A stretch of 62,426 bases of DNA, the filler included, from Nitrospirae bacterium CG2_30_53_67 (lineage in GTDB: Bacteria > CG2-30-53-67): the NCBI GenBank assembly GCA_001873285.1. It is 7 parts of 7 records of this genome, joined end to end, with 100 filler letters (N's around TTAATTAATTAA, not from the genome) between each part and the next. Parts side by side here need not be neighbours in the genome. Positions count along the whole stretch, not along the records: positions 44,816 to 48,668 come from MNYV01000106.1; 6 more parts are not named here. The stretch is one strand, 5' to 3'. The translations under genes and the position numbers were made by a program. How positions within the stretch are numbered: the stretch's first letter is position 1; every line of letters begins with the position of its first letter. Positions 7,057 to 48,668 of the stretch are shown here, in pieces. The notes beneath the pieces were generated by a model. The model did no database searches. It was not told where the DNA came from and saw only the letters and a list, made by a program, of their open reading frames with translations.

Positions 7057-7156
7057 NNNNNNNNNNNNNNNNNNNNNNNNNNNNNNNNNNNNNNNNNNNN
7101 TTAATTAATTAANNNNNNNNNNNNNNNNNNNNNNNNNNNNNNNNNNNNNNNNNNNN
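7057..7156. other. Artificial contig linker N44-TTAATTAATTAA-N44
   Basis: The same linker occurs at 25330-25429, 44716-44815, 48669-48768, 52664-52763 and 58613-58712. Confidence 0.97.
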
Positions 7157-43896: not shown

Positions 43897-44715
43897 ATGA
43901 AGTACCTTATCCTCGGTACCGCCGGGCATGTGGATCATGGAAAGACGGCTCTGGTCAAGGCATTGACCGGTGTGGACACCGACCGTCTTGAAGAAGAGAA
44001 AAAGAGGGGGATCACGATCGTGCTCGGTTTTGCCGAGTTGGAGCTTCCGGGTGGGGTTCAAGTCGGGATCGTTGACGTGCCGGGCCACGAACGGTTTGTC
44101 AACCAGATGCTTGCCGGCGTCGGGGGGGTCGATCTTGTCATGCTGATCATTGCAGCGGATGAAGGGATCATGCCTCAGACACGGGAACACTTTGACATCT
44201 GCCGCCTCCTCAACATCCGGAGGGGGCTGACCGTGATTACCAAAACCGATCTGGTAGACGGGGACTGGCTGCAGCTGGTCACCCAGGATGTGGAGGCGCT
44301 GACTCAAGATACCTTTTTGCAAGGCGGGGGGATCTATCCCGTCTCCTCAAAGACCGGGCAGGGGATACCCGAACTCATAGAGGGGCTCAGCCGGATTTGT
44401 GAGGGTGTGGAACCGAGGGGGAGCGCCGGGGTTTTCCGTCTTCCCGTTGACCGTGTCTTTACCATGAAAGGATTCGGAACCGTGGTGACCGGAACGCTCG
44501 TATCCGGAAGCGTAAGAAACGGCGAGACCGTGGAGATCCTCCCCAGAGGCCTGACAGCCAAGGTCCGGGGGATTGAGGTCCACGATAGACCCGTAAACCA
44601 GGCCTTGGCCGGCCAGCGCACGGCCCTGAACCTTCAGGGGATCGAAAAAGACCGGATCGAACGGGGGGATACCGTGACGGCGCCAGGCCTTCTGAGCCCG
44701 ACCTTTATGGTAGAC
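43897..44715 (+). CDS. selB: Selenocysteine-specific elongation factor SelB, 5' part (cut by gap)
   Basis: [55 protein letters not shown]. Confidence 0.93.
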
Positions 44716-44815
44716 NNNNNNNNNNNNNNNNNNNNNNNNNNNNNNNNNNNNNNNNNNNNTTAATTAATTAANNNNNNNNNNNNNNNNNNNNNNNNNNNNN
44801 NNNNNNNNNNNNNNN

Positions 44816-45106
44816 AACCACATCCGGGAACATGTTACCCCGGATGAGATAGTGTAGCACCCGCCCACGTGGGCGGGTGAGGATTGAAACAGATGAGTGC
44901 AGATTGCATTTATACAAGTGCAAAAGTAGCACCCGCCCACGTGGGCGGGTGAGGATTGAAACCACATCCGGGAACATGTTACCCCGGATGAGATAGTGTA
45001 GCACCCGCCCACGTGGGCGGGTGAGGATTGAAACTTAATAGAACCCCGGTCTAAACTGCTCCCGACCGGGTAGCACCCGCCCACGTGGGCGGGTGAGGAT
45101 TGAAAC
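44816..45106 (+). CRISPR. CRISPR array, trailer end: four complete 37-bp repeats GTAGCACCCGCCCACGTGGGCGGGTGAGGATTGAAAC and four 35-bp spacers; 5' part lost in the gap
   Basis: Identical repeats at 44854, 44926, 44998 and 45070. Palindromic stem and ATTGAAAC 3' end typical of class 1 repeats. Subtype not determinable, no cas genes in the window. Confidence 0.95.
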
Positions 45107-45124
45107 GCCAATGATCGCCGCACA

Positions 45125-45153
45125 ATGTTCCCCGCACGTGCGGGGATGAACCG
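45125..45153 (+). CRISPR. Solitary type I-E-like repeat ATGTTCCCCGCACGTGCGGGGATGAACCG
   Basis: 29 bp matching the I-E consensus GTGTTCCCCGC-N4-GCGGGGAT(G/A)AACCG. Confidence 0.75.
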
Positions 45154-45297
45154 AGGACAGGCCCGACCAGACAATCCACCCTTCGACAGGCTAAGGGTGA
45201 CAATTGTCATGGTGAGCTTGTCGAACCATGGATTCCCCGATCCAGTCGGGGAATGACGCTCTTAGAGAAATATTTACCCATAAATTTGTCGCACACC
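45154..45297 (+). mobile_element. Element B (nested-REP MITE), copy lacking the left TIR
   Basis: Shares aatcca-[cccttcgacaggct...gtcgaacca]-tggattccccga...ggggaatgac and the ataaatttgtcgcacacc end with the 47190 and 62174 copies. Confidence 0.75.
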
Positions 45298-45488
45298 ATG
45301 AGGATTGAAACATCTTGATTTTGCTTCTCTGCACTGATAGATTAAGCGAAACAGACGCAGATGAAAAATGGATCTTATTTAAATCTCGAATCCGAATCTG
45401 GAAAATTTGTATAATGATTTAATATCTGGATTCCCTGTACCCACGGGTCATAGACGATCCACGTGGGGAATGACGTCTCTTGTTTCAA

Positions 45489-47210
45489 ATGGAAACCTTG
45501 ACGCACAACAACATAACGATCTTCTTTCTCTCTCTGGGTATCCTGCTGGCCTCGGCGCGGCTTCTCGGTGAGATCGCCCACCGGCTTCACCAGCCCGCCG
45601 TGCTCGGCGAGATTCTTGCGGGAATCCTCCTGGGGCCGACCGTCCTCGGATTCTTCGCGCCGGACGTGAGCGCCAACCTGTTCCCCAAGGGAGGCCCGGT
45701 CGCTGTCGGGATTGACAGCCTGACCACGCTCGCCATCGCCCTCTTTCTTCTGGTATCGGGAATGAAGGTGGATCTTTCCACGGTCTGGCGCCAGGGTCGT
45801 TCCGCCCTCACCGTCGGTATCACAGGCATTGCCGTTCCCTTTTTGATGGGCTTCTGCTCGGCCTGGGTTGCGCCGAAGCTTCTGGGGAGCGAACCCGGGG
45901 CGGATCCGCTGATCTTTTCACTCTTCTTCGCCACGGCTCTTTCGATCTCCGCTCTTCCTGTGGTGGCCAAGATCCTCATGGATATCAATATTTTTAAAAC
46001 GGACCTCGGTATGATCATCGTGGCCGCTGCAATCTTCAATGACCTGATCGGATGGATCATCTTCGCTCTCATCCTCGGCATGATGGGGGGATCGAATTCA
46101 GGACCCGGCCTGTGGCAGACGATCTGGCTGACCTTGAGCTTTGTCGCCCTGATGCTGACTATCGGGCGATGGCTGATCGACCGCATTCTCCCCTGGGTCC
46201 AGGCGCACACAAGAGGGCCCGGCGGCATCCTGGGCTTTTGCATCTCGGTTGCCCTCCTGTGCGCCGCCTATACCGAATGGATCGGCATCCACGCAATCTT
46301 CGGCGCCTTCCTCTGCGGTGTGGCCCTGGGAGACTCGCCCCATCTGCGGGAACACACGCGTACCACGTTCGATCAGTTCATCTCCTTCATCTTCGCACCG
46401 CTCTTTTTTGCCAGCATCGGGTTGAAAGTCAATTTCATTCAAAACTTCGATTTCCCCCTTGTCCTCACCGTTCTTGTGATCGCCACGGCAGGAAAGGTCT
46501 TCGGCTGCGGGTTCGGGGCGATCTGGAGCGGACTGACGCGTAGAGAGGCATGGGCCATCGGTTTCGGCATGAACGCCAGAGGCGCCATGGAGATTATCCT
46601 CGGCCTCCTCGCCCTTCAAGCGGGGATCATCAGTGAACGCATGTTCGTGGCCCTGGTCATCATGGCCATATTGACATCCATGACAAGCGGAACGGCCATA
46701 CAGAAGATCCTCCGCCGTAAGAAACCTCTCCGCGTCACCGATTTTCTCACACCCAAAGTCTTCATGAAAGACTTTGAAGCGCTGAACTCTCAGGAGGCCA
46801 TCCGGAAGCTCTGTGCAGTCGCCTGCCAGGGGGCTGATCTTGACGATGAAGCTGCAAGCGAGGCCGTCTGGAAGCGGGAACAGATCGTCTCCACAGGCGT
46901 GGGAAACGGTGTGGCCATTCCCCACGCCCGCATCGACGTTCTGAAGCGGCCCCTCCTCGCCCTCGGTGTCGCCAAAAACGGCGTGGATTTCAACGCCCCG
47001 GACGGAGAGCCCGCCCGCCTGATTTTCCTGATTCTCATCCCCGGGCATGATCCCGAGTCGCAGCTCGAACTCCTCTCGGATATCAGCCGCACCTTTCTGG
47101 AGCCTGCCATGGTCAAGCGGGCGCTAAAAACGGAGAACTACACCGAACTGCTCGCCCTGATCAACACCGCCGAACCGGCGATACAGGACGGGTTTGTGAC
47201 AAACTTATAG
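45489..47210 (+). CDS. Cation:proton antiporter fused to a PTS EIIA(Ntr/Fru)-like domain
   Basis: QPAVLGEILAGILLGPT, FAPLFFASIGL, MNARGAME; C-terminal REQIVSTGVGNGVAIPHAR and DFNAPDGEP. Confidence 0.88.
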   Translation: METLTHNNITIFFLSLGILLASARLLGEIAHRLHQPAVLGEILAGILLGPTVLGFFAPDVSANLFPKGGPVAVGIDSLTTLAIALFLLVSGMKVDLSTVWRQGRSALTVGITGIAVPFLMGFCSAWVAPKLLGSEPGADPLIFSLFFATALSISALPVVAKILMDINIFKTDLGMIIVAAAIFNDLIGWIIFALILGMMGGSNSGPGLWQTIWLTLSFVALMLTIGRWLIDRILPWVQAHTRGPGGILGFCISVALLCAAYTEWIGIHAIFGAFLCGVALGDSPHLREHTRTTFDQFISFIFAPLFFASIGLKVNFIQNFDFPLVLTVLVIATAGKVFGCGFGAIWSGLTRREAWAIGFGMNARGAMEIILGLLALQAGIISERMFVALVIMAILTSMTSGTAIQKILRRKKPLRVTDFLTPKVFMKDFEALNSQEAIRKLCAVACQGADLDDEAASEAVWKREQIVSTGVGNGVAIPHARIDVLKRPLLALGVAKNGVDFNAPDGEPARLIFLILIPGHDPESQLELLSDISRTFLEPAMVKRALKTENYTELLALINTAEPAIQDGFVTNL

Positions 47211-47388
47211 ATAACCATTCTCTCGGAGAGCGTCATTCCCCGACCCCTTGATCGGGGAATCCATGGTTCGACAAGCTCACCATGACAATTGCCACCCTGA
47301 GCCTGTCGAAGGGTGGATTGTCCGGTCGAGCCGGACAATGACAAACATATGTAATCCTGATGTGTACCCATAAATTTGTCGCAGACCC
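47190..47388 (-). mobile_element. Element B (nested-REP MITE)
   Basis: TIRs gggtttgtgacaaa / tttgtcgcagaccc. It supplies the last codons and the stop of the antiporter gene. Confidence 0.8.
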
Positions 47389-47496
47389 GATTGTCCGGGG
47401 TGACTTGACAACCCAGCGGTCTCCTGATAAGGTTACATCCTCACAGCTTAGATTAACTAAATATAACCGGCTGGAATAAGCAACATCACGGTGGTC

Positions 47497-48441
47497 ATGG
47501 ACCCAAGAATTGCTGTATTGATCCCATGTTTTAATGAAGAGGCCGCAATCGAAAAGGTTGTCGGAGATTTCAGGGAGGTCCTGCCCCAGGCGGAAATCTA
47601 TGTTTACGACAACAACAGCACGGATCATACCGCGGAGGCCGCCCGGAAGGCCGGAGCGTTCGTCAGGCATGAATCACACCAAGGCAAAGGATATGTGGTC
47701 CGCCGTATGTTCAGAGAGGTGGATGCGGATATTTACGTCATGGTGGATGGAGACGGCACCTATCCGGCCGATGGTGTCCATTCACTCATCCGGCCGGTTT
47801 CTTCGGGCAAGGCGGATATGTGTGTTGGAAGCAGGATAGCAGATAAAAACAGCGAGGCCTTCAGAACATTTCATGTCGCCGGGAACCATCTGGTAAAGAA
47901 TGTCGTGAACCGGCTATTCGGATCAGATCTGTCCGATATTCTTTCCGGTTACCGCTGTTTCAATCACCATTTTGTGACCTCCATACCTCTGCTGAGCAGG
48001 GGGTTTGAGGTCGAAGTGGAAATGACGATCCAGGCGCTGGACAAGGGGCTGGTCATCCAGGAAATCGAGCTTCCCTACAGAGAGCGGCCTTCCGGAAGCT
48101 CGTCTAAACTTCGCACTTTCAGAGACGGATTTCTTGTGCTTTTGACCATATTTAATATTTTCAAGGATTACAAACCCCTTGCCTTTTTTTTCGCGGTCTC
48201 TATCCTTCTCCTCCTCCTGAGTCTTGTTCTTGGATGGAACGCCTTCCATGAATTTTCCGCTGACGGCTGGGTGATTCATCCTGCAGCCTCGGTTGCGGCC
48301 GCATGCCTGGCTGTCTTCTCCGTCGTTTCCCTGGTCACAGGCATTCTTCTGGATACGATTAACAGACGCTACAAAGAATTGTATGTTTTGATGACGCGCC
48401 GTTCTCCTGATTATAAGGATCATCTCCAAAAGAGTGGGTGA
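47497..48441 (+). CDS. Family 2 glycosyltransferase (polyprenol-phosphate sugar transferase-like) with 2 C-terminal TMs
   Basis: LIPCFNEE, YDNNSTD, MVDGDGTY, DILSGYR, GFEVEVEM, SKLRTFRDG. Confidence 0.9.
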   Translation: MDPRIAVLIPCFNEEAAIEKVVGDFREVLPQAEIYVYDNNSTDHTAEAARKAGAFVRHESHQGKGYVVRRMFREVDADIYVMVDGDGTYPADGVHSLIRPVSSGKADMCVGSRIADKNSEAFRTFHVAGNHLVKNVVNRLFGSDLSDILSGYRCFNHHFVTSIPLLSRGFEVEVEMTIQALDKGLVIQEIELPYRERPSGSSSKLRTFRDGFLVLLTIFNIFKDYKPLAFFFAVSILLLLLSLVLGWNAFHEFSADGWVIHPAASVAAACLAVFSVVSLVTGILLDTINRRYKELYVLMTRRSPDYKDHLQKSG

Positions 48442-48668
48442 AAACATCAGGGGTCAAGGGGTCAAGGATTCCAGGGGTCAAGTGAAGTGCTCAAACACTA
48501 CAAGGAGTTAAAGGAAGGGCCCCAGTCTTATCAATTATGCTTGGAGATTTACAAATTGCGAATTGGAGACACAAGTATTACTCGCTGGAGATCTTGGTTA
48601 TATCAGGGATGAGAAGTTAATGAGACTCAAGAGGGATATCGAGGAGGTTGAGCGGATGCTCAAGGCAT
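48417..48668 (+). mobile_element. Element A left arm carrying a four-helix-bundle gene remnant (cut by gap)
   Basis: ggatcatctccaaaagagtgggtgaaaacatcagggg, then the 8-mer tract, then the coding remnant. Confidence 0.75.
48487..48668 (+). pseudogene. Four-helix-bundle (23S rRNA IVS protein / Avd-like) gene with internal deletion and frameshift
   Basis: MLKHYKELK..QSYQLCLEIYK, frameshift near 48556, then CELETQVLLAGDLGYI...EVERMLKA. The central SQIRRAAVS..SNIAEG segment is missing. Confidence 0.75.

Follow-up and report, generated by a model that had tools for sequence, protein, structure and literature searches.

Lone and aberrant CRISPR repeats

The trailer ends of CRISPR (clusters of regularly interspaced short palindromic repeats) arrays accumulate damaged, non-functional repeats, seen as degenerate terminal repeats and as eroded or orphan arrays. 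Recombination is a force in array evolution, according to the part of one study available to us (PMC4524480). Repeats are also described singly. In the accessible part of their description (PMC10651486), solitary repeat units (SRUs), considered here together with RNA anti-CRISPRs (Racrs), are defined on mobile elements such as phages, prophages and plasmids and often sit just downstream of a promoter; 83% match the host's own subtype. CreA, CRISPR RNA (crRNA)-like RNA (crlRNA) and small CRISPR-associated RNA (scaRNA) elements originate from the repeat of the host itself, and each has a promoter target to which it is complementary in part, as excerpts of the two relevant reports set out (10.1101/2023.03.03.530964; PMC9458426). 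Here, we describe a single 29-nucleotide (nt) repeat of type I-E from Nitrospirae bacterium CG2_30_53_67 (GCA_001873285.1), found in a 62-kb stretch of DNA that we call the window. The repeat lies within the trailer of an array of a different subtype, best named I-C-like. With a probability of roughly 70%, we take this 29-mer to be a genuine I-E repeat that survives as a fossil in a decayed trailer, a relic of cross-subtype recombination that is now inert.

The locus partly resembles each of the described systems. Like an SRU or Racr, the 29-mer is a lone repeat of known subtype without adjoining cas genes of the same subtype, and its predicted fold is repeat-like. Unlike SRUs and Racrs, so far as the available text describes them, it is chromosomal, syntenic in two species, and inside the trailer of another array. 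Furthermore, no promoter-like site directly precedes the unit and no I-E system was found in the host. Hence, neither the mobile-element location nor the match to the host's subtype (here I-C-like) is seen. As in eroded trailers, the damage is at the trailer end and involves recombination-prone repeats; unlike in such trailers, the unit is of another subtype (I-E within I-C-like) and is itself undamaged. The likeness to CreA, crlRNA and scaRNA elements, as excerpted, consists of a good proximal repeat, a short spacer-like stretch, an odd distal repeat, and conservation in close relatives. The differences are that the distal repeat is heterologous and that no target was found; in particular, no partial complementarity to the promoter of a cas, toxin or other gene, as CreA and crlRNA have, was found for the spacer-like segment.

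Solitary repeats are known already, as are eroded trailers and array recombination. For mixed I-E/I-C arrays, no description was found in the open-access full texts that were searched. The same texts yielded no prior description of the combination reported below, namely a perfect repeat of another subtype within an array, together with hybrid repeats among relatives and mirror-image cases that lie in another phylum.

A type I-E repeat inside a type I-C-like array

The features of the locus are as follows.

44816..45106, + strand: trailer-proximal end of a type I-C-like CRISPR array, with four 37-nt repeats and 35-nt spacers
45107..45124, + strand: 18-nt stretch linking the last 37-mer to the I-E repeat, read as a truncated spacer
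45125..45153, + strand (sense relative to the array): single type I-E CRISPR repeat, 29 nt, with a palindromic stem and a 3' handle region
45153..45297, + strand: copy of a dispersed element resembling a miniature inverted-repeat transposable element (MITE), 145 nt, 5' part gone (genome BLAST and flank comparison)
45299..45311, + strand: remnant of the 37-mer, its last 13 nt (13/13 exact), the old terminal repeat of the array
45304..45408, + strand: trailer conserved with the sister species (94/105 identical), beginning at ATTGAAAC

Note that the window chains seven contigs (C73, C74, C75, C78, C79, C80 and C83) of a metagenome-assembled genome (MAG; G000, 183 contigs, 2.37 Mb, 95% complete) by means of artificial linkers. 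The locus is on contig C78 (window 44816-48668, 3,853 bp), and the array begins at the contig edge.

All four 37-nt repeats (44854-44890, 44926-44962, 44998-45034 and 45070-45106) are exact, with 0 mismatches in 4/4, and none arose in 100 shuffles. The 37-mer corresponds to Rfam CRISPR-DR9, scoring 56.1 bits on the + strand against a threshold of 45 bits. Placement in type I-C, or close to it, is supported by the ATTGAAAC 3' end of the repeat, an adjacent I-C-type cas1, and the Cas5, Cas8, Cas7 and Cas3 of the sister-species locus, without Cas6. The genome's own cas5, cas8, cas7 and cas3 are not in the bin, and neither Cas6 (PF01881) nor a RAMP gene was found in it. Contig C101 of the same genome terminates in the same 37-mer, on the opposite strand; next to it come an AT-rich region resembling a leader, then cas2 and cas1, and lastly the cas4 end. 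From this layout of repeat, leader, cas2 and cas1 we conclude that the array is transcribed on the + strand and that C78 carries its trailer end. The cas1 and cas2 genes are 97% identical to those of the sister species (G005).

Some peculiarities of the array itself are recorded here. One 35-nt spacer is present twice on C78, the partial first spacer (44819-44853) being the same as the third (44963-44997). The spacer order is also unlike that of metagenome contig L046, which may reflect either heterogeneity among strains or a loop in the assembly where the contig ends. In arrays of the same species (L044, L046 and L047), several spacers are variants of one sequence, starting CGGGATTGGCC, CAGGATTGGCC or CGGAATCGGCC and continuing ..GGAAGGGAAA.., which suggests repeated acquisition from one variable target.

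The 29-mer starts 18 nt past the last 37-mer and has the same orientation, as the first-pass annotation of this DNA had claimed. Together, linker and repeat span 47 nt (18 + 29). Since this exceeds the 35-nt spacers of the array, the unit is not one ordinary spacer, and on this point too the earlier claim holds. A common core had also been noted. Indeed, both repeats have CCCGC, ACGT and GCGGG in the same order; the three motifs are contiguous in the 29-mer and split by CC and GG in the 37-mer.

We find that the I-E label is correct. Within the window, the 27-nt core (45127-45153) is single at up to 3 mismatches, with 0 occurrences in 100 shuffles, and a 26-nt core of the 29-mer is likewise single in the whole genome at that tolerance. 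Elsewhere, in a collection of species-representative genomes, the exact 27-mer occurs at 18 loci, two of which (L015 and L021) overlap on one contig. It is repeated at 13 of the 18 (2 to 47 copies, mostly at 61-nt spacing) and single at the other 5. The full 29-mer, including its AT start, is the repeat of seven Nitrospirota/Nitrospiraceae array loci (L013, L014, L015, L017, L019, L021 and L024). When five genomes with this repeat were searched, Cas6e/CasE (PF08798, 120-180 bits) lay 0.7-4 kb from the array in four, one of the four genes having internal stops. Hence, the CasE search is sensitive for this variant. The 61-nt period of these arrays, which corresponds to spacers of about 32 nt, and their association with Cas6e are what identify the repeat as type I-E; in Rfam, the 29-mer had no CRISPR family match at E up to 1.

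Exact copies also stand alone in intergenic DNA of other organisms. Those in a Desulfuromonadales MAG, an Accumulibacter genome and a Deltaproteobacteria MAG (L010, L023 and L027) have no further copy within ~300 nt, and at L011 and L022 a second, variant copy beside the exact repeat makes a two-copy mini-array. These solitary and two-copy repeats may be relics or regulatory units. In the source genome, two matches to a loose I-E-like hairpin pattern (on C25 and C122) were taken as chance; the flanks of the C25 match have no array structure.

In the predicted fold, the hairpin of the 29-mer is kept in the centroid structure. For the fold of 45070-45320, the z-score is -3.6, owing mostly to the repeat and the dispersed element. 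Between 44816 and 45600, the sole promoter-like site sits within the array (45028-45057). A Racr or SRU would be expressed as a small RNA from a promoter of its own. Among the listed sequencing runs that contain this stretch, none is recorded as RNA.

The junction is fixed in the sampled population

Contigs from five metagenome assemblies (L043-L047), retrieved with a 31-nt trailer pattern, cross the junction. All five have an identical 409-nt tail with 0 mismatches, comprising the linker, the 29-mer, the truncated element, the 13-nt remnant and the trailer. Upstream of this tail are four different spacer sets, including two different terminal spacers. In addition, each of the 30 bins of the stretch has depth in Logan contigs, drawn from four runs of aquifer or groundwater origin, and 45129-45223 is bridged by one contig. 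Logan contigs break at repeats, and none of the listed pieces covers the full stretch; support for the junction comes mainly from the five Joint Genome Institute (JGI) contigs.

These contigs make it barely credible that the arrangement is an assembly chimera formed at a CRISPR array in a metagenome bin. The array does stand at a contig end, with one spacer duplicated and an order unlike that of another contig. However, the junction is identical in 5/5 separately assembled contigs. Moreover, the longest exact string common to the two repeats is 6 nt, which is too short to mislead an assembler.

The 18-nt linker has no recognizable source or target. Its longest match elsewhere in the genome is 11-12 nt, and 9 nt in the cas locus of G005 (BLAST E 3.8-15, chance level). 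An exact search of a viral contig collection returned 0 loci for the linker and 0 for the 27-mer. These results bear on a regulatory reading, in which the last 37-mer, a short spacer of 18-20 nt and the distal hairpin would form a crRNA-like mini-array, of the CreA/crlRNA kind, that guides the I-C-like Cascade to repress a partly matching promoter. In its order of parts, where a perfect repeat is proximal, an aberrant one distal and a short stretch like a spacer lies between them, the unit resembles the mini-arrays described in the available portion of 10.1101/2023.03.03.530964, whose distal repeats are degraded, and it is conserved across strains. Nevertheless, we regard this reading as highly improbable. 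Beyond the chance matches of 9-12 nt, neither the genome nor the cas locus of G005 contains a target for the short spacer, the distal repeat is heterologous rather than a degraded host copy, and G005 does not have the unit in this form.

A truncated dispersed element and the end of the array

The I-E repeat abuts the dispersed element directly, with one base in common (G at 45153). The element is MITE-like in having many short non-coding copies, the full ones with inverted ends; its modules are present in 26-38 copies on 22-29 contigs of the 2.4-Mb genome. The copy at 45153-45297 lacks the left inverted terminal repeat and left arm found in other copies. Since it starts mid-element with its left end gone, a deletion appears to have joined the I-E repeat to the element interior. 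On inspection by eye, the terminal inverted repeats of the element are ~23 nt and its core is quasi-palindromic. A fuller copy lies at about 47191-47387; the element is also present at about 45409-45475 and in dozens of places in G000.

Only one base separates the end of the element (45297) from the 13-nt remnant of the 37-mer. The remnant coincides with a weak CRISPR-DR9 match (45288-45311, 17.3 bits, E 0.67). This remnant, and the conserved trailer, are both beyond the 29-mer. Hence, the I-E repeat is inside the array rather than after it.

The abutment raises the question of whether the hairpin of the 29-mer is simply a variant module of the element. I-E-like hairpins of the form TTCCCCG-N7-CGGGGAAT are abundant there, and other copies carry a different hairpin at the equivalent position. 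The resemblance is superficial. The pattern TTCCCCG-N4-9-CGGGGA has 60 strand-wise matches in the genome, nearly all in the element. However, the 26-mer core stands alone in the genome when up to 3 mismatches are allowed, against the 26-38 copies of the modules. Furthermore, the 29-mer is identical at 29/29 positions, 3' handle included, to CRISPR repeats of unrelated phyla. A module of the element is therefore a very remote prospect: with no second genomic copy, the 29-mer is not a regular part of it.

A hybrid repeat in the sister species

Besides the source organism, the genus has a single species, G005, in which the locus is complete and syntenic. Its genes are ordered cas5, cas8, cas7, cas3, cas4, a Bro-N gene, an open reading frame (ORF), a RhuM gene, another ORF, cas1 and cas2. 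Then follow the leader, 28 repeats, the trailer, and an orthologue (84% identity) of the exchanger gene that flanks the array on C78. The G005 repeat differs from the 37-mer by one base. Its Cas1 is of I-C type (TIGR03640, 517 bits against a cut-off of 385); Cas5, Cas8c and Cas7 match I-C models best, but under the cut-offs. The order cas5-8-7-3-4 is unlike what we take to be the textbook I-C order. In both species, Bro-N and RhuM-family genes lie between cas4 and cas1 (2195-3510 of C101, locus L008, in G000; 9929-13124 of L042 in G005). Such genes are cargo of the mobile-element type within a cas operon.

The 27-mer was not found in G005 at up to 3 mismatches. What G005 has is a 29-nt hybrid repeat (L042:17728-17756), with 383 nt between it and the last repeat and 214 nt between it and the conserved ATTGAAAC trailer. 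The first 20 nt of the hybrid are identical to the 37-mer family, and its last 12 nt agree with the I-E 3' end at 11/12 positions. Such a sequence is what would be given by a crossover in the common ACGTG/GGG core. Alternatively, it could have come from an arrangement like that in the window, through a short deletion between the two stems. The hybrid implies that I-E material was at the locus before the two species diverged, and that, on one or more occasions in this lineage, the cores of the two repeat families recombined.

The hybrid is within a 626-bp insert, between the G005 array and trailer, that is unique in G005 and absent from G000. A 91-residue ORF with CxxC...CxxC motifs (L042:17494-17769) reads into the hybrid repeat and has only a weak RNHCP match (E 0.008, under the cut-off). 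Analysis of the insert did not clarify the history of the locus.

Mirror-image mixed arrays in Nitrospirota

Similar mixed arrays are found in another phylum. Across 401 Nitrospirota genomes, an I-E 3' end followed after 40-70 nt by an I-C tail was found in three (G014, on contig L012; G125; and G208), and a reversed control pattern in 0. In the Nitrospiraceae MAG contig L012, three I-E repeats and a 32-nt spacer are followed by a 31-nt hybrid (782-812), made of an I-E 5' arm and an I-C-type 3' end. After this come a 34-nt spacer and a 37-nt I-C-type repeat (847-883). In G125, a 34-nt spacer stands between two I-E repeats and the two I-C-type repeats that follow. In G208, an I-E array of at least 7 repeats ends in the 3' half of an I-C-type repeat. 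On the trailer side, the ORFs scanned encode housekeeping functions (CstA and a histidine kinase in G125; radical SAM, RNase III and fatty-acid synthesis in G208), with no cas gene among those scanned in these two genomes.

As at our locus, two repeat families stand in tandem, in the same orientation and about one spacer apart, with hybrid repeats that cross over in the GC-rich stem and with the minority family at the trailer, by housekeeping genes. The Nitrospirota arrays differ in that I-E is upstream and the I-C relics downstream; their I-C-type repeats also differ from the 37-mer. Mixed I-E/I-C arrays thus recur, and it is at their trailer end that the minority family sits.

The opposite order (I-C tail, 10-40 nt, I-E start) also matched 3/401 Nitrospirota genomes. 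These matches are near-identical strings and were judged unrelated, on the basis of the one inspected (L056), which has no array structure. Beside the Nitrospiraceae hybrid mini-array is a small ORF (L012:1035-1314), presumably HigB/RelE-like; a Phd/YefM antitoxin gene (PF02604, L061:1794-2258) is also beside it.

Cognate machinery and possible donors

Pfam searches found no CasE, Cas7e or Cse1 in the 95%-complete genome itself, and no CasE or Cas7e in 9/9 genomes of the family (the same 9 at order level). Of 14 genomes of its own phylum, the repeat is in this one only. Hence, with one repeat copy and no I-E cas genes found, the genome does not have the makings of a functional I-E system, although absence from 183 contigs is not proof. 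The suggestion in the first-pass annotation that one pre-crRNA feeds, or acts as a decoy for, two Cas systems is unsupported by these searches. Its suggestion of a captured solitary repeat acting as an RNA anti-CRISPR fares no better: the site is chromosomal and syntenic, no cognate system was found, and the repeat is absent from the viral contigs.

The same results make it quite unlikely that the unit works as a functional I-E element, either as a host-encoded repeat mimic that titrates Cas6e/Cascade of invaders or in the service of an unassembled second I-E system. There are points in favour of such a function. The unit is in sense orientation, directly downstream of an array with a leader, cas1 and cas2; it is letter-perfect, without variation in 5/5 metagenome contigs, despite spacer turnover; and a stable hairpin is predicted. 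Moreover, phage-encoded repeat mimics inhibit CRISPR-Cas, in the portion of PMC10651486 available to us. Against this, no I-E cas gene was found in genome or family, and G005 kept only a hybrid with a point change. In addition, no promoter-like site was found directly upstream, and the open-access texts searched yielded no precedent for a host-encoded decoy against foreign CRISPR systems. That the intact hairpin has some function of whatever kind is, in our view, unlikely.

Arrays with this repeat do occur nearby. In X2, one of the same aquifer runs, two copies of this 29-mer stand 30 nt apart on one contig; in run X4, depth on the I-E repeat is far higher than on its flanks. Since such arrays are present in at least one of those runs, a horizontal source is plausible.

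With such DNA at hand, the array's own Cas1-Cas2 might have captured the unit from a foreign I-E array, as an over-long spacer. The inserted sequence begins exactly where a perfect repeat ends, as a spacer would. We nevertheless consider capture very unlikely. The 47 nt compare with 33-36 nt for the complete spacers of the array, and what comes after is not a full repeat but a truncated mobile element and only 13 nt of repeat. Furthermore, capture leaves the hybrid repeat of G005 unexplained.

Origin and present state of the repeat

Our preferred reading, a fossil I-E repeat left by recombination between subtypes, can be set out as a sequence of events. DNA with an I-E array would have become attached, without a change of orientation, to the I-C-like array at its last units. 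The two GC-rich palindromic repeats would have recombined with each other, through an illegitimate or microhomology event. The join would be older than the split of the two species of the genus, and any I-E genes, if they ever arrived, would since have been lost. The MITE-like element would then have inserted beside the I-E fragment. Finally, a deletion would have taken everything between the first I-E repeat and mid-element, leaving one repeat. Since growth takes place at the leader end of an array, joins of this kind persist at its trailer. At present, the unit would be read through as the 3' tail of the pre-crRNA, folding into the predicted hairpin. With no enzyme in the assembled genome to process an I-E repeat, we infer that it has no immune function. 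In short, the finding is real and the unit probably inert.

The first-pass annotation had proposed a fusion of two arrays through their shared core. The fusion stands. The route through the core does not apply to the window, where the join is outside the core and the 37-mer, the 18 nt and the I-E repeat follow one another, both repeats being complete; the crossover in the core is seen in G005 (L042:17728-17756) and in the unrelated Nitrospiraceae contig (L012:782-812).

Several points weigh against the fossil reading. The join in the window is not a hybrid repeat, so that its mechanism has to be taken from the sister species and from other phyla. The Pfam searches for I-E genes detected their control only in Thermus and not in E. 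coli. Similarly, since the MAG, with its 183 contigs, has left its own cas5, cas8, cas7 and cas3 unbinned, missing genes are weak evidence. As no I-E array or cas gene was found in the phylum, a vertical I-E ancestor is unsupported, and horizontal arrival is what we propose in its place. Finally, what the fossil reading chiefly leaves unexplained is that the I-E unit is letter-perfect (29/29), while the trailer differs by ~10% between species. However, from the 94/105 identity of the trailer we estimate the chance of zero changes in a neutral 29-mer, along one lineage, at roughly 1 in 4, which fits either a relic or selection. At such odds, the perfect 29-mer is not a strong objection.

A bolder interpretation would have I-E and I-C-like arrays repeatedly fuse in register via their similar GC-rich palindromic stems, with one leader transcribing both and the embedded unit kept for a role as RNA. 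That role may be to titrate the Cas6e/Cascade of mobile-element I-E systems, or to provide a structured 3' end for the last I-C crRNA. We rate this interpretation as unlikely. Were it true, with both fusion and retained function, trailer ends would be a readable record of subtype turnover, and some relics would be exapted, host-side repeat mimics.

Trailer ends are usually dismissed as junk. Here, the trailer is legible, in that arrays of different subtypes appear to have recombined and the trailer to have preserved the event, which bears on the swapping and loss of CRISPR-Cas loci. There is also a warning for annotation: an array, or a 'solitary repeat', may be mistyped where two families share a locus. 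For anti-CRISPR searches, a lone repeat need not be a phage-style repeat mimic.

Flanking sequences

Two further features bound the locus.

44716..44815, no strand: artificial contig linker (N run, TTAATTAATTAA, N run); the C75 DNA on its left is not a genomic neighbour of the array
45480..47210, + strand: Na+/H+ exchanger fused to a phosphotransferase system (PTS) EIIA-2 domain, the flanking chromosomal gene, with an orthologue 84% identical that flanks the sister-species array

No phage or plasmid genes were found on the 3.85-kb contig C78. The window has six linkers of the N/TTAATTAATTAA/N form, at 7101, 25374, 44760, 48713, 52708 and 58657, and adjacency across a linker is meaningless. At the end of C75 (window 43899-44715) is a GTPase gene, cut off by the end of that contig, which we take from its N-terminus to be SelB-like (a selenocysteine-specific elongation factor).

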